Source: a virus. Taken from it: a stretch of 64,000 bases of DNA. Each line of letters begins with the position of its first letter. The first letter of the stretch is position 1. Location of the stretch: IMG/VR virus record IMGVR_UViG_3300043570_001741, positions 32,001 through 96,000 of that record, one strand, 5' to 3'. Below, in pieces: positions 53,640 through 59,031 of this stretch. Below the pieces are notes generated by a model. It was not told the origin of the DNA and ran no database searches. It saw only the letters and a list, made by a program, of their open reading frames with translations. A program made the position numbers and the translations under genes.

Positions 53640-54155
53640 ATGCCTAATTGGTGTAGTAACTCTGTAAAAATTTCTGGCTCTAAAGAACAAATTGATGCCT
53701 TGGAACAATTCTTAAAAGAATCAAATGGTAAAGACTGGTTCGATTTCTTTCGACCTATTCCACCTGAATATAAAGAAGGTGAATTGTGGTATGGTTGGTC
53801 TATCAACAATTGGGGTTGCAAATGGAATTGTGATGCTCAAGATTGGTCAAGAGAAGATGTTGAGGATGAAGATGTATCAACGATTTCATTTTGGTTTGAT
53901 TCTCCTTGGGGTCCGCCAATTGCTTTATATGAAGCCGCTACTGAAGATGGTTATTATATTGAAGCATATTACCTTGAAGAAGGTATGGGCTTTGTAGGAA
54001 AGTTTGAAGATGGTTTTGATGATTATAATGAGTTTGATTTAGCAGACCCTGATTCTTTAGACCTCATTGATGATGATATTATTGAATTTTGGGATTTGAG
54101 AACACGCCTAGAAGATTGGCAAGATGAAAATCCACCGGAGGAAGATGATGAATAA
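53640..54155 (+). CDS. DUF1281/YubB ferredoxin-like domain protein
   Basis: MPNWC.N, WY.W...NWG.KW, FDSPW.PP, Y.E.GM.F.G. Confidence 0.8.
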   Translation: MPNWCSNSVKISGSKEQIDALEQFLKESNGKDWFDFFRPIPPEYKEGELWYGWSINNWGCKWNCDAQDWSREDVEDEDVSTISFWFDSPWGPPIALYEAATEDGYYIEAYYLEEGMGFVGKFEDGFDDYNEFDLADPDSLDLIDDDIIEFWDLRTRLEDWQDENPPEEDDE

Positions 54156-54348
54156 TACATTTTCTATTTTAATTGCAATTGTTGTAATTTTATTTCTCTT
54201 AATTGTTGCTCCTTTCTTAACAATTTGGTCTTTGAACACGCTTTTTCCTGTTTTGGAGATTCCGTACACATTTGAGACTTGGTCGGCAACAATTTTATTG
54301 ACAGCTGTGCTGCAATCTTCAAGCTTGAGTTTTAAAAATCGTAAATAA
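54145..54348 (+). CDS. Small membrane protein
   Basis: IWSLNTLFP...IPY.F.TW. Confidence 0.65.
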   Translation: MMNNTFSILIAIVVILFLLIVAPFLTIWSLNTLFPVLEIPYTFETWSATILLTAVLQSSSLSFKNRK

Positions 54349-54357
54349 GGTGAAAAA

Positions 54358-54633
54358 ATGAGTGAAAAATTTGAATTTAAGACAAAAAAAGAGAAAAATT
54401 GGCTTTTGAGTGCTCTCCGTGAAAGTGAAGTGACTGTAAAATTCACAAAAAAAGACGGAAGTGAACGGACAATGATTTGTACTTTGAAAGAAGACAAAAT
54501 CCCGACTGAAAAATTGCCAAAAACTGCTGAAAAACAGAAAAATGAAGAAGTTGTTCCCGTTTTTGACCTTGAGAGTCAAGGTTGGCGTAGTTTTCGCTGG
54601 GACTCAATCAAAGAAATTCATTTTACAGTATAA
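54358..54633 (+). CDS. WYL_2/SH3-like T4-family protein
   Basis: V.FTKKDG.ER.M.CTL, VFDL...GWRSFR.D. Confidence 0.75.
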   Translation: MSEKFEFKTKKEKNWLLSALRESEVTVKFTKKDGSERTMICTLKEDKIPTEKLPKTAEKQKNEEVVPVFDLESQGWRSFRWDSIKEIHFTV

Positions 54634-54646
54634 ATAGTAGCATTAC

Positions 54647-54721
54647 CGCAGGTAGGTCAAGTTGACCCGAATGGTCTCATAAGCCATATCGAGAGTGGAG
54701 CGTTACCACTACCTGCAACCA
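54647..54721 (+). tRNA. Atypical tRNA-Met(CAT), initiator-like
   Basis: Cloverleaf with CCA, C1:A72 mismatch, loop CTCATAA; TATAAATA at 54629. Confidence 0.75.
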
Positions 54722-54741
54722 CATTTTTAGTATATTATAGC

Positions 54742-55191
54742 ATGTTACATTTAATAGAATCACTAACTGATAAATTTTTTGACTTGTTGAATCAAGATCC
54801 GGTACGCCCGAATATTCCACATGTGGACCGAATTGGTCCTAATAAAGATATTTTTGTTTTCCGTGATGCTGATGATAAAGTTAAAGCTATTACATGTGTG
54901 AGTTATCAACATTCAATTCCAACAAAGGAATCTGAATTATTTGAAAATACAGACACTCCTAACGTAGCCGTATTTTACACAATCTGGTCATATGTGCCAG
55001 GTGCTGGTCGTACATTGATTTTTGATGCGGTTCGCCACATTAAAGAGACAAGGCCGGAAATTACAAGATTTGTGACTTTAAGTCCAAAGACTGAAATGGC
55101 TAAACGTTTTCATACAAAGAATGGTGCAGGTGTTTATCGTGAAAACATCGAAACTGTTAATTATGAGTATGAAAAAGTGGAAAATACTTGA
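54742..55191 (+). CDS. Conserved hypothetical protein, GNAT-like
   Basis: DPVRP, FYTIWSY..GAGR, VTLSP.T.MA..FH.KNGA. Confidence 0.65.
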   Translation: MLHLIESLTDKFFDLLNQDPVRPNIPHVDRIGPNKDIFVFRDADDKVKAITCVSYQHSIPTKESELFENTDTPNVAVFYTIWSYVPGAGRTLIFDAVRHIKETRPEITRFVTLSPKTEMAKRFHTKNGAGVYRENIETVNYEYEKVENT

Positions 55192-55221
55192 CCTTTTTAC
55201 TTGTAATACTAAAGTTTACGC

Positions 55222-55250
55222 TTGACAAATACTAAATAATAGACTATAAT
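55222..55250 (+). promoter_or_regulatory. tRNA-array promoter P1
   Basis: Perfect TTGACA-17-TATAAT; CTAAATA late-like site inside the spacer. Confidence 0.9.
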
Positions 55251-55256
55251 ACACAA

Positions 55257-55385
55257 ATGATGCAAAATTTAAGACTCTCACCGATAACGCTAAGTGCTAT
55301 GTCACCGACATGGCAGGCCAACTATCGTTGTGAGAATCATGGCTTTATTGGAACATCAAAGGATCCAGCAGAGGTTTGTGTTTAG
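55257..55385 (+). CDS. Leaderless 42-aa attenuator leader peptide containing all 20 amino acids
   Basis: MMQNLRLSPITLSAMSPTWQANYRCENHGFIGTSKDPAEVCV; ATG starts 7 nt after the -10 box. Confidence 0.7.
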   Translation: MMQNLRLSPITLSAMSPTWQANYRCENHGFIGTSKDPAEVCV

Positions 55386-55452
55386 AATAAATTAGTAAAA
55401 TAGTTTTTTAATCACAAACCTCAGACCTAAAAAATCTGAGGTTTTTTGTTTT
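55371..55452 (+). terminator. Attenuator with mutually exclusive antiterminator and terminator
   Basis: GAGGTTTGTG (55371-80) pairs with CACAAACCTC (55413-22); alternatively AAACCTCAGA (55416-25) pairs with TCTGAGGTTT (55435-44), followed by a U-tract. Confidence 0.85.
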
Positions 55453-55469
55453 GGGCATCGTCCCTTTTA

Positions 55470-55495
55470 GTTCTTTAAAAATTTGTAGAGTTAAT
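55470..55495 (+). promoter_or_regulatory. boxA-like site plus leader strand of a long-range helix
   Basis: GTTCTTTAAAAA; 55477-55495 is the exact reverse complement of 58100-58118. Confidence 0.7.
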
Positions 55496-55499
55496 ATAT

Positions 55500-55573
55500 T
55501 CCCGAATGGTGTAGTGGTAGCACAGCAGACTTTGACTCTGTTAGTATAAGTTCGATTCTTATTTCGGGTGCCA
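55500..55573 (+). tRNA. tRNA-Gln(TTG)
   Basis: Cloverleaf, loop CTTTGAC, CCA. Confidence 0.9.
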
Positions 55574-55606
55574 TATAAAAACATATTGTGAAGTGTGTTT
55601 CTATAT

Positions 55607-55694
55607 GGAAGTGTGGTCGAGTGGTCTATGGCTCTAGTCTTGAAAACTAGCGATTCGAAAGGATCCGTGAGTTCGAATCTCACCGCTTCCGCCA
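55607..55694 (+). tRNA. tRNA-Ser(TGA)
   Basis: Long variable arm, loop CTTGAAA, GCCA. Confidence 0.93.
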
Positions 55695-55698
55695 AATT

Positions 55699-55787
55699 GG
55701 AGAGTGGGCAGGATGGTAATGCAGCAGATTGCTAATCTGTCATCGGATTAAACCGGTGAGTGGGTTCGATTCCCACACTCTCCGCCA
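55699..55787 (+). tRNA. tRNA-Ser(GCT)
   Basis: Long variable arm, loop TTGCTAA, GCCA. Confidence 0.92.
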
Positions 55788-55788
55788 T

Positions 55789-55864
55789 GTAGGTGTGACC
55801 TGAAAGGCTAGGGAGCGGATTGCAAATCCGTATAATGCAGGTTCGAGTCCTGTCACCTACTCCA
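55789..55864 (+). tRNA. tRNA-Cys(GCA)
   Basis: Loop TTGCAAA, U73, CCA. Confidence 0.92.
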
Positions 55865-55882
55865 TTTGAAAACAAAAGTATT

Positions 55883-55978
55883 GTTGTATAAAAACAACGA
55901 TGCTAAAATAGTTGTTGACTAAATGTGTGGTTCATGTATAATACACACATGTTATTTAAAAAGTTGTAGAGTTAATTT
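55883..55978 (+). promoter_or_regulatory. Internal tRNA-array promoter P2 with palindrome, boxA-like site and second copy of the leader strand
   Basis: GTTG-N8-CAAC 55883-98; TTGACT-16-TATAAT; GTTATTTAAAAA 55951; TTGTAGAGTTAAT 55964. Confidence 0.7.
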
Positions 55979-55980
55979 TT

Positions 55981-56055
55981 GCTCCGTTCGTCTATCGGTT
56001 AGGACGCTGCCCTTTCAAGGCGGAAAGACCAGTTCGATTCTGGTACGGAGTACCA
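55981..56055 (+). tRNA. tRNA-Glu(TTC)
   Basis: Loop CTTTCAA, CCA. Confidence 0.92.
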
Positions 56056-56176
56056 TTTGTTTTGCTGACGTAAGCGCCTGAGTAAACGTCAACTCTAACT
56101 AACTATGTACATAAACGGTAATGCTGCAGCTAATTCCGTTGAGCATAGCAAATAGTGCGTCAGCAAAACAAATGGT
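56052..56176 (+). ncRNA. Unknown structured RNA closed by a 19-bp perfect stem
   Basis: ACCATTTGTTTTGCTGACG pairs with CGTCAGCAAAACAAATGGT; inner arm CTATG/CATAG and AACGG/CCGTT. Confidence 0.65.
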
Positions 56177-56181
56177 TGTTT

Positions 56182-56256
56182 GGAGGCATAACTTAACGGC
56201 TAAAGTAACTGGCTTTTAACCAGTAAATCAGAGTTCGATTCTCTGTGCCTCTACCA
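56182..56256 (+). tRNA. tRNA-Lys(TTT)
   Basis: Loop CTTTTAA, CCA. Confidence 0.92.
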
Positions 56257-56265
56257 GTAGAATTT

Positions 56266-56350
56266 GGAGATGCCGCCGTAATGGTATGGCAGGAGACTGT
56301 AAATCTTCCGACTTAGGTCACAATAGGTTCGATCCCTATCATCTCCACCA
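56266..56350 (+). tRNA. tRNA-Tyr(GTA)
   Basis: Variable arm, loop CTGTAAA, CCA. Confidence 0.92.
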
Positions 56351-56354
56351 AATT

Positions 56355-56429
56355 GGTTTCAAAGTGTTCACGGACGCACGCTAGCTTGTCACGCTAGAAG
56401 AAGGGGATCGTTACCCCTTGAGACCGCCA
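56355..56429 (+). tRNA. tRNA-Asp(GTC)
   Basis: Loop TTGTCAC, G73; atypical T-loop ATCGTTA. Confidence 0.85.
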
Positions 56430-56438
56430 AGTTTTTAT

Positions 56439-56513
56439 TCCACAGTAGCACAGCGGTAGTGCAGTTGACTGTTAATCAATTGGTCGTAGGTTCGATCCCT
56501 GCCTGTGGAGCCA
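56439..56513 (+). tRNA. tRNA-Asn(GTT)
   Basis: Loop CTGTTAA, GCCA. Confidence 0.93.
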
Positions 56514-56518
56514 ATATC

Positions 56519-56595
56519 GGGGACGTGATGGAATTGGTATACGTGTTGGTCTTAGAAGCCAAATTTTGTGAGTTCGAGTCTCACCGTCCCCACCA
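56519..56595 (+). tRNA. tRNA-Leu(TAG) lacking the long variable arm
   Basis: Loop CTTAGAA, Leu-type D-loop, A73, 77 nt. Confidence 0.88.
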
Positions 56596-56599
56596 ATTT

Positions 56600-56673
56600 G
56601 CCCTTTTAGTATAATGGTATTACGCCTGTTTTGTAATCAGGTTACGGCAGTTCGATTCTGTCAAGGGGCACCA
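56600..56673 (+). tRNA. tRNA-Thr(TGT)
   Basis: Loop TTTGTAA, CCA. Confidence 0.92.
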
Positions 56674-56678
56674 ATTTT

Positions 56679-56752
56679 CTCGGTATAGTTTAATGGTAGA
56701 ATTCGTGGTTTGGGACCATGTGATGGAAGTTCGATTCTTCCTACCGAGACCA
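56679..56752 (+). tRNA. tRNA-Pro(TGG)
   Basis: Loop TTTGGGA, C1:G72, CCA. Confidence 0.92.
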
Positions 56753-56757
56753 GTTAT

Positions 56758-56831
56758 GGGGAATTAGTATAATGGGATTACGGCAGCTTTGCAAGTTGTT
56801 TATGGGAGTTCGATTCTCCCATTCTCCACCA
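56758..56831 (+). tRNA. tRNA-Ala(TGC)
   Basis: G3:U70, loop TTTGCAA. Confidence 0.92.
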
Positions 56832-56835
56832 TTCA

Positions 56836-56910
56836 GGTTCAGTAGCACAGCGGTAGTGCAATTGCTTCATACGCAATAGGTCGTTGGCTCGAATCCAACC
56901 TGAACCACCA
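56836..56910 (+). tRNA. tRNA-Met(CAT), probably elongator
   Basis: Loop TTCATAC, CCA. Confidence 0.85.
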
Positions 56911-56916
56911 AGTTAC

Positions 56917-56991
56917 GGGCGATTAGTAAAATGAATATTACACAAGGCTACGAACCTTGAAGTGGGAGTTTGATTCTCTCATCGCCCTCCA
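56917..56991 (+). tRNA. tRNA-Arg(ACG)
   Basis: Loop CTACGAA, CCA. Confidence 0.88.
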
Positions 56992-56992
56992 G

Positions 56993-57192
56993 AACCAGCT
57001 AAGGTAACGCTTGGCTACTGTGACACGCAGGAAGTGAAGTGAGTTCGTTACTCAAGTGTGGTACTACTCTTACCGAAGTAGCGTTGGCAATACGAGAATT
57101 CTTTTTGGTCGGGAAGCGGGTGGAAGGTACATGGGAGAGGTATGATAGCGTCATATCTTTTCGTACTATAATTACCGCCGCAGAAAGAAAGC
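56993..57192 (+). ncRNA. Unknown ~200-nt multi-hairpin RNA within the tRNA array
   Basis: GC-rich; at least five small hairpins plus a long nested arm at about 57108-57189. Confidence 0.65.
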
Positions 57193-57195
57193 AAT

Positions 57196-57270
57196 GCCGT
57201 TGTAGCTCAGAGGAAGAGCATTCGCTTGATAAGCGAAAGGCCGACATTTCGAAATTGTCCAACGGTACCA
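57196..57270 (+). tRNA. tRNA-Ile(GAT)
   Basis: Loop TTGATAA, CCA. Confidence 0.9.
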
Positions 57271-57275
57271 ATTTT

Positions 57276-57349
57276 ATCTCGCTGGTGTAATGGCAGCACG
57301 ATGGTCTCCAAAACCATTAGTCGGGGTTCGAGTCCCTGGCGGAATGCCA
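57276..57349 (+). tRNA. tRNA-Trp(CCA)
   Basis: Loop CTCCAAA, G73. Confidence 0.9.
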
Positions 57350-57368
57350 AGTTTTAAAGGTTGTCAAT

Positions 57369-57857
57369 ATGAAAAAATTCGATATAGAAGAAGTCAAACA
57401 GTTCCTTGCAAAACAAGGACCAAACACCAAAGTATATCTTGGTGCTGATTCAGAAAGAATCAGAGTGAATGAAGTTTGGTATGCTGACTACGCTTTAGCT
57501 GTTGTAGTTCATATTGATGGTTGTCATGGTTGTAAGATTTTTGGTTTTGTTGACCGTGAATTAGATTACGACCATAAAAAAAGTAAACCTGCTATGCGTC
57601 TAATGACAGAGGTGTACAAGGTTTCAGAATTGTTCCAATCACTACAGGATGTGTTGGAAGATTATCATGTTGAAGTCCATTTGGACTTAAATAAATCAGA
57701 TGAGTTCGGTAGTTCTTGTGTTGTTCAGCAAGCAATTGGTTATATCAAAGGTACATGTAACATGACACCAATGGTTAAACCTGATGCACCTGCGGCTTCA
57801 TTCTGTGCAGACCGTTTAAAACGGATTCTAGCAGAACAAGAATTGTCAACTATATAA
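57369..57857 (+). CDS. YkuK/DUF458 RNase H-fold protein
   Basis: Y.G.DS, R...EV, EVHLD.N, KP.A.AAS..AD. Confidence 0.75.
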   Translation: MKKFDIEEVKQFLAKQGPNTKVYLGADSERIRVNEVWYADYALAVVVHIDGCHGCKIFGFVDRELDYDHKKSKPAMRLMTEVYKVSELFQSLQDVLEDYHVEVHLDLNKSDEFGSSCVVQQAIGYIKGTCNMTPMVKPDAPAASFCADRLKRILAEQELSTI

Positions 57858-57863
57858 AAATAT

Positions 57864-57937
57864 GCGGGATTAGTTTAGGGGCAAAACAGCAGATTTCCAA
57901 TCTTCGGTCATCGGTTCGATTCCGATATCCCGCTCCA
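57864..57937 (+). tRNA. tRNA-Gly(TCC)
   Basis: GCG...CGC U73 CCA, loop TTTCCAA. Confidence 0.9.
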
Positions 57938-57943
57938 GTCAAT

Positions 57944-58019
57944 GCAGTTGTTAGTGTAAAGGTTAACACCACGGATTGTGATTCCGTTAATATGGGTTCG
58001 ATTCCCATACTTCTGCCCA
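57944..58019 (+). tRNA. tRNA-His(GTG)
   Basis: G-1:C73, loop TTGTGAT; two U:U pairs in the acceptor stem. Confidence 0.87.
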
Positions 58020-58023
58020 ATTC

Positions 58024-58098
58024 ACATCGTTAGCTCAGCGGTAGAGCAGGGCCCTTACAAGGCCAAGGTCAAAAGTTCAATCCTTTTACGATGTACCA
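58024..58098 (+). tRNA. tRNA-Val(TAC)
   Basis: Loop CTTACAA, CCA. Confidence 0.92.
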
Positions 58099-58118
58099 AA
58101 TTAACTCTACAAATTTTT

Positions 58119-58193
58119 CTGGCCTTAGTATAATGGATAATACAGTTGCCTTCTAAGCAATCAATACAGGTTCGATTCCTGTAGGCCGGGCCA
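58119..58193 (+). tRNA. tRNA-Arg(TCT)
   Basis: Loop CTTCTAA, A20, GCCA. Confidence 0.92.
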
Positions 58194-58198
58194 ATTAC

Positions 58199-58274
58199 AC
58201 GCTTGTAGCTCAATGGTTAGAGCAGGAAACTCATAATTTCTTGGTTGGGGGTTCGAGTCCCTTCGAGCGTACCA
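58199..58274 (+). tRNA. tRNA(CAT), probably Ile2 (lysidine type)
   Basis: TAGCTCA.TGGTTAGAGCAGG...CTCATAA...CTTGGT resembles bacterial Ile2. Confidence 0.85.
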
Positions 58275-58284
58275 TATATAATTA

Positions 58285-59031
58285 ATGTCCGTGAAAAATC
58301 TAATCTTTTCATTTCTACTGTTAACAACAAATGCCTTTGGTGTGAGTTTAACTGCTCACACTTGGTTAGTTGCGGATGGTGACGGTAGAATCATACAAAG
58401 TGAAAATGGCCAAGAACTAAGGTCGATTGCCAGTATCACTAAACTTATGACTGCAATGGTCATAATAGATGCTGGTCAGAATCCAAAAGAGAAACTCGGA
58501 AATTTAACAAGAGAGCAACATATTCAAATGGCTCTTGTTATGTCAAGCAATGAATCTGCTATTACTTTATGTGATAATTATCCAGGTGGTAAATCAAGTT
58601 GTATTAGGGATATGAATTCTAAAGCTGTTGCTATGAATATGCCTAACACCAAATTTGTTGAAGCATCTGGACTAAGTCCGATGAATATCAGTACAGGAAA
58701 AGATTTGATTGAATTGGTGCTTGCTGCAAGTTATTATCCCGATATCATTCAGGCTAGTAAAACTGCTCAAGTGAAGATTCAAGTTAAAAAGAAGTGGTTC
58801 TTTTTCAACAATACGAATCCAATTATTGGTAAACGCCACGATTTCATAGTAAGTAAAACAGGATGGACAAATGCGGCCGGTGGTTGTATCGTAATGTTAT
58901 TGGATACTGATATTGGCCGCAGGCTTGTTGTGGTACTCGGTTCTAAGAATACTAGAACACGAATACCAGAAGCTGAGTTTATTGCTTTACAGAATAATTG
59001 GCAACCACAACCAAATACCTTGGCTCATTAA
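58285..59031 (+). CDS. Peptidase S11 D-Ala-D-Ala carboxy/endopeptidase (PbpG-like)
   Basis: Signal peptide; SITK, SSN and KTG motifs. Confidence 0.9.
   Translation: MSVKNLIFSFLLLTTNAFGVSLTAHTWLVADGDGRIIQSENGQELRSIASITKLMTAMVIIDAGQNPKEKLGNLTREQHIQMALVMSSNESAITLCDNYPGGKSSCIRDMNSKAVAMNMPNTKFVEASGLSPMNISTGKDLIELVLAASYYPDIIQASKTAQVKIQVKKKWFFFNNTNPIIGKRHDFIVSKTGWTNAAGGCIVMLLDTDIGRRLVVVLGSKNTRTRIPEAEFIALQNNWQPQPNTLAH

Follow-up and report, generated by a model that had tools for sequence, protein, structure and literature searches.

A phage tRNA array with conserved boxA-like sites and a covarying leader-trailer helix probably follows the plan of a bacterial rRNA operon

The window analysed here, a 64,000-nucleotide stretch of an IMG/VR virus record (IMGVR_UViG_3300043570_001741; 157,713 bp), carries an array of tRNA genes in which a gene for an RNase H-like protein and two small non-tRNA RNAs are embedded (Table 1). 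Large phage tRNA arrays are common, and their transcription and maturation as units have barely been studied. Two promoters serve the array. The upstream one, P1, feeds a small ORF, then an attenuator and then leader 1. The internal one, P2, has its expected start 1-3 nt upstream of boxA-like site 2, which agrees with a preliminary description of this DNA that had placed a degenerate boxA copy behind an internal promoter, and the same promoter-boxA fusion is seen in relatives. An Rfam search of positions 54000-59000 reported tRNAs and nothing else.

Table 1 Features of the tRNA array and its flanks (positions in the window)
Feature	Position	Strand	Remarks
Promoter P1	55222-55250	+	Perfect sigma-70 consensus, 12/12 matches, 17-nt spacer
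Upstream attenuator (intrinsic-terminator-like hairpin and T run)	55419-55447	+	Read from the sequence; alternative pairing found
Small hairpin, 3-bp stem	55453-55464	+	Weak; outside the window only in L005 and L006
boxA-like site 1	55470-55481	+	GTTCTTTAAAAA; perfect match to GYTCTTTAANA
Leader strand 1	55477-55495	+	Overlaps the boxA A run; stops 4 nt before tRNA-Gln
Internal promoter P2	55915-55942	+	11/12 matches
boxA-like site 2	55951-55962	+	GTTATTTAAAAA; degenerate here (C4 to A), canonical in most relatives
Leader strand 2	55958-55978	+	Stops 2 nt before tRNA-Glu
Enclosed cargo	55500-58098	+	20 tRNA genes (first Gln, last Val), plus the two entries below
Non-tRNA spacer RNAs	56056-56181 and 56992-57195	+	In cargo
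RNase H-like (PF04308) gene	57369-57857	+	162 codons; inside cargo
Trailer strand	58098-58118	+	tRNA-Val to tRNA-Arg spacer
tRNA-Arg(TCT) and tRNA-Met	58119-58274	+	Outside the closed loop

The two boxA-like 12-mers reported in the preliminary description, and the 13-mer shared behind them, are present exactly as claimed. The 13-mer, TTGTAGAGTTAAT, follows the two sites at 55483-95 and 55964-76; its exact sequence occurs three times in the window and at the same three places in the whole record, all within the array. Measured against the published boxA consensus, in which C4 is reported to be critical (PMC5725501), site 1 matches in full and site 2 fails at position 4. The consensus is matched at four sites in this one genome against 1.55 expected, a count that alone is not significant, and two of the other matches fall inside long ORFs. 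Hence it is conservation in relatives, and not the number of matches in a single genome, that gives the boxA word its weight. The small hairpin in front of site 1 does not hold up as a conserved boxB, given that its stem is only 3 bp long and that it recurs only in the two nearest relatives, L005 and L006; other relatives have a different, invariant GAAA-loop hairpin, or none, in its place.

We compared 80 related IMG/VR phage loci with syntenic arrays; L008, L035, L037, L039, L045, L059 and L068 belong to complete phage genomes with records of 160-177 kb. A boxA-like word lies 26-36 nt upstream of tRNA-Gln and tRNA-Glu at 95 sites in 58 loci; it is present, at about 27-30 nt, in nearly all arrays that cover the Gln/Glu positions, nearly invariant and fixed in position. 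Upstream of it the relatives have either an immediately adjacent -10 box or the GAAA-loop hairpin, and the sequence of promoter, hairpin and boxA is that of rRNA operons. As expected of a boxA, the word would be transcribed close behind a promoter, and what follows it is a long unit of which little is translated. Two distant cultured relatives, Stenotrophomonas phage DLP6 and Synechococcus phage BUCT-ZZ01, which among cultured phages are the closest to carry the RNase H-like gene, have tRNA arrays that lack a boxA-like word, and megablast and blastn searches of the array and leader against cultured phages returned only tRNA fragments or chance matches in coding regions. We found no published account of boxA with phage tRNA clusters or tRNA operons, or of the motif itself, in the literature.

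The bases that follow each boxA-like site have a partner near the end of the array. Positions 58100-58118 are the exact 19-nt reverse complement of 55477-55495, as first noticed, and the computed duplex energy is -21.6 kcal/mol. A 15-nt complement to the second leader had also been noted, and it corresponds to the 15 contiguous pairs within a 21-nt pairing of 55958-55978 with 58098-58118 that contains one G-A mismatch (-20.1 kcal/mol). Both leaders share the single trailer, giving two direct copies and one inverted copy, with 2.1-2.6 kb between leader and trailer. The helix is A+U-rich and, for leader 1, only 19 bp long. The trailer occupies the whole 20-nt spacer between tRNA-Val (end 58098) and tRNA-Arg (start 58119), and the other spacers in this part of the array measure 4-9 nt. 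The enclosed segment was originally called a long untranslated region, which is only partly apt: the array is mostly untranslated, but the loop also holds the translated 162-codon gene.

Covariation across related phage arrays, the check proposed in the preliminary description, succeeds. Approximately 60 related phages keep the leader-trailer pairing through compensating changes, the 12-25 nt after boxA pairing with a trailer on the same strand 2.1-7.3 kb downstream. The post-boxA bases differ between clades and form at least five helix sequence types, each with compensation on the trailer side, so that both strands of the helix change jointly. In all, 40 different combinations of leader and trailer pair over 12-25 bp, with a median of 17, whereas with reversed or shuffled leaders the runs reached only about 8 nt. 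From clade to clade the two strands change in step, and the cargo between them differs. Positions in the helices that are not Watson-Crick pairs are almost all G.U wobbles, and in L075 a U-A or U.G pair is replaced by C-G. In a type-blind census, transitions inside helices fell in 12 wobble contexts against one A.C, a bias that fits RNA pairing on the sense transcript and not a DNA site. About every second array has a trailer that also forms the -35 box and spacer of a downstream promoter, an overlap that accounts for one recurrent wobble and leaves room for a role at the DNA level; where the trailer lies outside a promoter, as in the clade of the window, an A replaces the wobble G and the pairing is perfect. 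The trailer is absent in one subclade (L072, L076 and L081) and several arrays have lost the boxA or the strand of the Glu leader, which indicates that the system is dispensable at least in part.

The closest likeness is to the rRNA operons of Comamonadaceae. A 15-mer of the phages matches, letter for letter, a genuine boxA of rRNA operons in Burkholderiales and in some Gammaproteobacteria. Of 120 genome matches sampled, 15 lie in rRNA operons (16S-23S spacer or 16S leader), and the boxA of the 16S-23S spacer is identical to it in Comamonas, Acidovorax, Limnohabitans, Hydrogenophaga and others. In the Comamonadaceae operons that were compared (Hydrogenophaga L185, Limnohabitans L150 and L182, Acidovorax L143 and Comamonas L124), the partner of the bases just after boxA is a segment located between 23S and 5S, approximately 3.2 kb away. 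As in the phages, the A run of boxA already contains the start of the 5' strand, boxA is preceded at a few nucleotides by a hairpin and the trailer is encoded further along the same strand. At its base, the Limnohabitans hairpin shares 5 bp with the hairpin of the phage relatives, and the host strand has a 7-mer in common with phage helix type A at the same offset. The phage arrays differ in that the cargo is at least 20 tRNAs, two small RNAs and a protein gene rather than 23S rRNA, the leader-trailer distance is variable (2.1-7.3 kb), two alternative leaders serve one trailer, the trailer often doubles as a promoter and the helix sequence evolves fast among close relatives. In Escherichia coli 30S biogenesis, a helix of more than 17 bp and a boxA near the leader strand are the features that matter (PMC10250234). 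The phage strands flank a stable-RNA cargo, exceed approximately 17 bp (19 perfect; 21 with one mismatch) and show compensatory change; the helix would work like the leader-trailer family of rRNA operons but, given that no rRNA is enclosed, is not a member of it. The identical boxA, with a leader strand directly after it as in the Comamonadaceae 23S helix, argues that the array copies the rRNA-operon design. We consider it probable that the tRNA array follows the bacterial rRNA-operon plan, closest to the 23S half of the Comamonadaceae operon, with boxA loading Nus factors and the helix closing the transcript. The comparison of the array with an rRNA operon, made at the outset from this one phage, thus gains support from the invariance of the boxA word, the covariation of the helix and the identity to a genuine rRNA-operon boxA, all of which are observed.

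The helix could be real RNA pairing even if the adjoining word did not load Nus factors. The word might instead be an initial transcribed sequence tuned to the promoter, a leader determinant for RNase E or RNase P, or a site for a phage protein, with processing or protection taking place without anti-termination; we judge this unlikely. In many relatives the word begins 1-3 nt past the predicted transcription start, which is unusual for a boxA, variants persist at position 5 (L028, L040, L055 and L075) and at position 4 (site 2 of the window), and tRNA arrays, being highly structured, may need no protection from Rho. However, the word is also found 10-25 nt past the start, behind the hairpin, and is hence not tied to the start site. 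Its fit to the published consensus is perfect, its 15-nt identity is with a genuine rRNA-operon boxA, and its neighbours, a hairpin before and a leader strand after, are those of rRNA operons.

If the array does follow the rRNA-operon plan, transcription would start at host-type sigma-70 promoters and the RNA would carry an rRNA-operon-type boxA among its first nucleotides, except in leader 1 of this phage, where boxA comes after the attenuator. The 12-25 nt after boxA would be the 5' strand of a long-range RNA helix; its 3' strand sits between two tRNA genes towards the end of the array, at a distance of 2.1-2.6 kb in this phage and of up to 7.3 kb in relatives. By analogy with the rRNA system, boxA would load host NusB/NusE and other Nus factors on RNA polymerase, making it fast and termination-resistant over the mostly untranslated array, and the bound factors would keep the leader at the RNA exit, where it would anneal once the trailer emerges. 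The 19-bp duplex would then close the primary transcript and would be a likely substrate of host RNase III, whose cut would release the leader and define where the unit ends on its 3' side. Genes for RNase III and NusB were not found among those encoded by the phage, so host factors would be needed. Some points count against this explanation. RNase P and 3' nucleases release tRNAs with no help from RNase III, and the need for a closing helix is therefore not obvious. In addition, RNase P should remove the tRNA-Gln leader within seconds, which means that pairing in cis kilobases later needs the leader to be held at the polymerase, as we assume here. In the window itself, site 2 carries the C4-to-A change, and leader 1 lies behind an intrinsic terminator beyond the influence of boxA; because the attenuator is 5' of boxA 1, that site is unable to help RNA polymerase past it.

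A second alternative is pairing in trans, in which the leader of approximately 30 nt released by RNase P acts as an abundant small RNA that anneals to read-through transcripts at the trailer and causes cleavage or blocks maturation of the neighbouring tRNA, with no tether to the polymerase. With the leader ending 2-4 nt short of the first tRNA, RNase P would release it, and the trailer is often found at the junction of two successive transcription units. Even so, we regard this as quite improbable, given that short 5' leaders are usually degraded fast, that pairing in trans gives no reason for a boxA fused to the strand and that the rRNA-operon parallel favours cis.

It is also possible to read the repeats as DNA, with one phage or host protein binding the word after the two array promoters and again, inverted, at the -35/spacer of the next promoter, so that these promoters would be coordinated through a roadblock or looping, and with the changes between clades reflecting co-evolution with the protein. 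The promoters that approximately half of the trailers match exactly in -35 box and spacer are well-formed sigma-70 promoters, and, relative to their own promoters, the leader copies occupy about +8 to +30. Against this, the trailer adjoins a tRNA without any promoter in the window and several other clades and is nevertheless perfectly kept, it is always inverted, on the same strand and downstream, the differences between copies nearly all preserve RNA pairing on the sense strand (12 versus 1) and in bacterial rRNA operons this arrangement takes the form of an RNA helix; we therefore find a DNA-level explanation very unlikely. The leader was also considered as an antisense promoter and rejected, its reverse complement having no usable -10 box. 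That the inverted copies are recombination scars or sites, such as an invertible segment or the boundary of a mobile cassette, or a functionless chance repeat, can practically be set aside: a 2.6-kb segment framed by 19-nt inverted repeats is a textbook sign of invertible or mobile DNA, but the tRNAs are co-oriented with the RNase H-like gene in 80/80 loci with no inverted form seen, two direct copies accompany the inverted one, leader and trailer covary while the cargo changes, and a 13-nt complement within 6 kb is expected by chance at only about 1e-4 per clade.

Among phages, the tRNA cluster of T4 is transcribed as a polycistronic precursor that contains extra small stable RNAs and is processed by host RNases, and the present array resembles it as a predicted polycistronic tRNA precursor with extra non-tRNA species. 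To our knowledge, neither a boxA nor leader-trailer pairing has been described for the T4 cluster. Use of host Nus factors by a phage, by way of a boxA on the nascent RNA, would be common to this array and to lambda-type nut sites with N protein. In lambda nut, however, boxA comes before boxB, N protein binds the boxB loop and there is no long-range helix, whereas in the phage relatives the hairpin stands ahead of boxA, the order known from rRNA operons, and in the window it is missing; in no case does a hairpin follow boxA as in a lambda-type nut site. The E. coli rrn leader (boxB-boxA-boxC; PMC10250234, PMC4807359, PMC6614797) is alike in the order of elements, the consensus boxA and a helix of more than 17 bp, and may be alike in mechanism, in that boxA-bound Nus factors would tether the leader to the polymerase until the trailer has been transcribed, after which RNase III would cut. 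In contrast to E. coli rrn, the phage array encloses no rRNA, no boxC motif was recognised in it and its boxA can be the very 5' end of the RNA. Outside rRNA operons, a consensus boxA of the suhB type, located before a non-rRNA gene, recruits Nus factors (PMC5725501), but there the effect is repression or modulation of just one protein gene downstream, and a partner helix is lacking.

A bolder version of the rRNA-operon reading, which we think doubtful, is that the lineage captured or closely mimics the boxB-boxA-leader plus trailer module that flanks host 23S rRNA, with the tRNA array replacing the rRNA, and that the host would both transcribe and process the array like ribosomal RNA. The boxA-bearing leader would stay on the Nus-modified polymerase after the RNase P cut, and the trailer, often exactly on the next promoter, would capture it and strip boxA from NusB/NusE, ending the anti-terminated state at the unit boundary. 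If this were true, the arrays would put to the test in nature, at distances of up to 7 kb, the model of a polymerase that carries its leader to the trailer.

The comparative evidence suggests that a widespread freshwater phage group reuses the control design of rRNA operons (boxA, upstream hairpin and long-range closing helix) for tRNAs. The host Nus/rRNA anti-termination machinery may thus also act on a kind of phage gene that lies outside the lambda N paradigm and is new for it. For the study of leader-trailer pairing with a non-ribosomal cargo, the arrays supply dozens of naturally occurring helix variants and one case of natural trailer loss. A freshwater Hi-C paper provided no usable host link, and the likeness to rRNA operons offers a sequence-based clue to the host, Comamonadaceae such as Limnohabitans, for phages with no cultured member. 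In the L079 clade, an apparent third complement lies approximately 240 nt upstream of the Gln leader; it is the start of the small upstream ORF, and we treat it as a coincidence.

The virus record that holds the window is 157,713 bp long (G+C 38%), and its 23 tRNA genes all lie within one region. The trailer is the entire 20-nt spacer between tRNA-Val and tRNA-Arg and is the reverse complement of the leader, pairing perfectly with leader 1 over 19 nt and with leader 2 over 21 nt with one mismatch (predicted duplex energies -21.6 and -20.1 kcal/mol). The 13-mer core has no copy elsewhere in the phage genome outside the array. The preliminary description had likened the array to an rRNA operon, and its words, 13-mer, inverse 19-mer and second-leader complement were all correct on recheck. 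The small hairpin that it placed at 55453-64 is present, but has only a 3-bp stem and is common only to the window and the related arrays L005 and L006 (L-numbers denote fetched loci, among them related IMG/VR phage arrays and bacterial rRNA-operon loci).

Features of the tRNA array (window positions) and examples from related phage loci
Feature	Position	Context
Isolated tRNA(CAT), tRNA-Met	54647-54721	778 nt upstream of array, outside both leaders
Perfect sigma-70 promoter	55222-55250	3' of isolated tRNA-Met
Small ORF, ~42 codons, start near transcription start	region 55222-55452	3' of sigma-70 promoter
Terminator-like hairpin and T run	55419-47	3' of small ORF
boxA-like word 1	55470-81	then 14 bases, then tRNA-Gln at 55500
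Leader 1	55477-55495	
Second promoter	55915-42	3' of tRNA-Cys, directly 5' of word 2
boxA-like word 2, degenerate	55951-62	then same 13-mer, then tRNA-Glu at 55981
Leader 2	55958-55978	
Perfect 19-bp stem	56052-56176	left arm takes in 3' ACCA of tRNA-Glu; 87 nt enclosed between tRNA-Glu and tRNA-Lys
Non-tRNA spacer, 204 nt	56992-57195	between tRNA-Arg and tRNA-Ile
RNase H-like PF04308 gene (phrog_11311), 162 codons	57369-57857	embedded in tRNA array
Trailer	58098-58118	
Trailer within promoter of next tRNA or gene	L013:5620-5660; L035:5521-5560; L042:5744-5780	examples

tRNA-Glu is followed by another 16 tRNAs, two spacers without tRNAs (126 and 204 nt) and one protein gene; tRNA-Val closes the unit. 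Neither spacer has an Rfam match; spacing of roughly 126 nt between tRNA-Glu and tRNA-Lys is retained in many relatives, and the 204-nt spacing recurs in L005, L006 and L035. The 19-bp stem may be a second RNase III-type substrate, since its length equals that of the leader-trailer helix. Upstream, 55371-87 with 55406-22 forms a hairpin mutually exclusive with the terminator-like one, and the pair looks like an attenuator. In relatives, a homologous promoter and small ORF precede the Gln leader (for example, L079 and L081), and the isolated tRNA(CAT) lies at a similar distance from the array.

Relatives were collected as 80 IMG/VR loci anchored on the RNase H-like protein (87-99% protein identity), whose gene lies 3' of tRNA-Trp in all 80 and has homologues in tRNA regions of Stenotrophomonas, Xanthomonas, Vibrio and roseophage genomes. 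Their arrays are syntenic, with varying content and spacing, and the tRNAs are all on the same strand. In 58 loci, a total of 95 boxA-like words lie 26-36 nt 5' of tRNA-Gln or tRNA-Glu, some of them changed at position 5 or carrying C at position 10. In relatives the word either comes straight after a -10 box, so that the RNA essentially begins with it, or has an invariant 5-bp GAAA-loop hairpin a few bases upstream; window leader 1 has neither. The hairpin lies 1-7 nt 5' of boxA in many leaders (for example, L015:2118-2131 and L053:1540-1553) and is absent from the window phage's genome. Its sequence is fixed across clades with wholly different helix strands and it is retained through a wobble change in L084, which suggests sequence-specific recognition.

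The preliminary description had looked to covariation in relatives, and this is what they display. The bases 3' of the word are not conserved between clades and fall into at least five unrelated versions; for each, a downstream spacer close to the array's 3' end carries the reverse complement, on the strand of the leader itself. Type-blind realignment yielded 40 different leader/trailer pairs (12-25 bp, with a median of 17) whose strands lie 2.1-6.6 kb apart, or 7.3 kb in L049, where the trailer lies beyond the fetched locus; reversed or shuffled leaders gave complementary runs of only ~8 nt in the same loci. Transitions within the helices leave 12 wobble contexts (11 U.G, 1 G.U) versus one A.C, alongside six transversions, and one leader of L075 turns a wobble position into C-G. 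Such asymmetry is what RNA pairing on the sense transcript predicts, and it is unexpected for a DNA site.

The trailer has two settings. In the window and several other clades it lies directly against the next tRNA's 5' end; in roughly half of the arrays it spans the -35 box and 17-nt spacer of a good sigma-70 promoter serving the unit that follows. The end of the helix and the start of the next transcription unit tend to coincide. The repeats could thus be read as DNA-level operator sites. The -35 box accounts for the commonest wobble, a G in the trailer; in arrays without a promoter there, including the window, this G is A and pairing is perfect, and complementarity to the leader is therefore the constant feature. 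Together with the wobble bias, the fixed orientation and the rRNA-operon parallel, these promoter-free trailers argue against operators and against the inverted copies being recombination sites.

There are exceptions. In L072, L076 and L081 the Gly-Gly spacer is an unrelated 10-nt sequence (L081:8008-8017), whereas the sister clade L079, L080 and L082 carries a 16-nt trailer there (L079:8002-8023), a naturally occurring trailer loss. At the Glu leader, the word or the strand has been lost from some arrays, and in the window clade C4 of word 2 is A. In the E. coli suhB boxA, a mutation including the C4 position abolished function (PMC5725501).

Site 1 fully matches the published gammaproteobacterial boxA consensus, GYTCTTTAANA (PMC5725501). 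A scan of one genome per prokaryote species with the phage 15-mer gave at least 120 matches. Among the 120 listed, 15 lie within rRNA operons: 14 precede 23S within the 16S-23S spacer (among them Comamonas, Acidovorax, two Limnohabitans, Hydrogenophaga, other Burkholderiales, Pseudomonas, Kistimonas and a Steroidobacteraceae genome), and one is in the 16S leader of Mycoavidus. In Comamonadaceae operons a hairpin lies five bases 5' of the word, and the bases after it, from inside its A run, pair ~3.2 kb downstream. Rfam mapping places this partner between 23S and 5S in L185 (Hydrogenophaga) and L150 (Limnohabitans); the pairing is therefore the 23S leader-trailer helix, and the phage design matches that of these operons in each element. 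Phage type A, one of the clade-specific helix versions, has a 7-mer in common with the Comamonadaceae strand at the same offset, and the phage hairpin base equals that of Limnohabitans. The boxA in the 16S leader of Limnohabitans is a variant that differs from the phage word, so it is the 23S module that the phage resembles. A Comamonadaceae host is plausible, not proven.

Assembly of the E. coli rRNA anti-termination complex starts at boxA, and 30S formation there requires a leader-trailer helix of >17 bp, which RNase III cuts (PMC10250234; see also PMC4807359 and PMC6614797). By analogy, the best reading is that the phage array would use the same host machinery; genes for RNase III and NusB are absent from the phage. 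Nus factors loaded by boxA would give fast, termination-resistant transcription of the array and hold the short leader at the polymerase until the trailer emerges and anneals, and host RNase III would process the duplex. That boxA is fused to the leader strand speaks for the two being functionally linked: without being held, a 30-nt leader that RNase P releases in a matter of seconds would have little chance of meeting a partner kilobases away. Less probably, the helix is real and the word has a non-Nus role, or the leader RNA acts in trans.

The comparative evidence is strong, and the system lends itself to direct tests. Literature searches turned up no account of either boxA or leader-trailer pairing in the tRNA arrays of phages, and sequence comparison found no similar leader in cultured phages; the parts are known individually, but not as a frame for phage tRNA genes. 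In a different phage, a 76.7 kb IMG/VR contig (L230:1132-1145, minus strand), an E. coli-type boxA word lies ~190 nt downstream of a sigma-70 promoter and 9 nt 5' of tRNA-His, with which a tRNA array broken by an HNH-like ORF begins; this could be chance, given that it is the only such case among 118 matches sampled.
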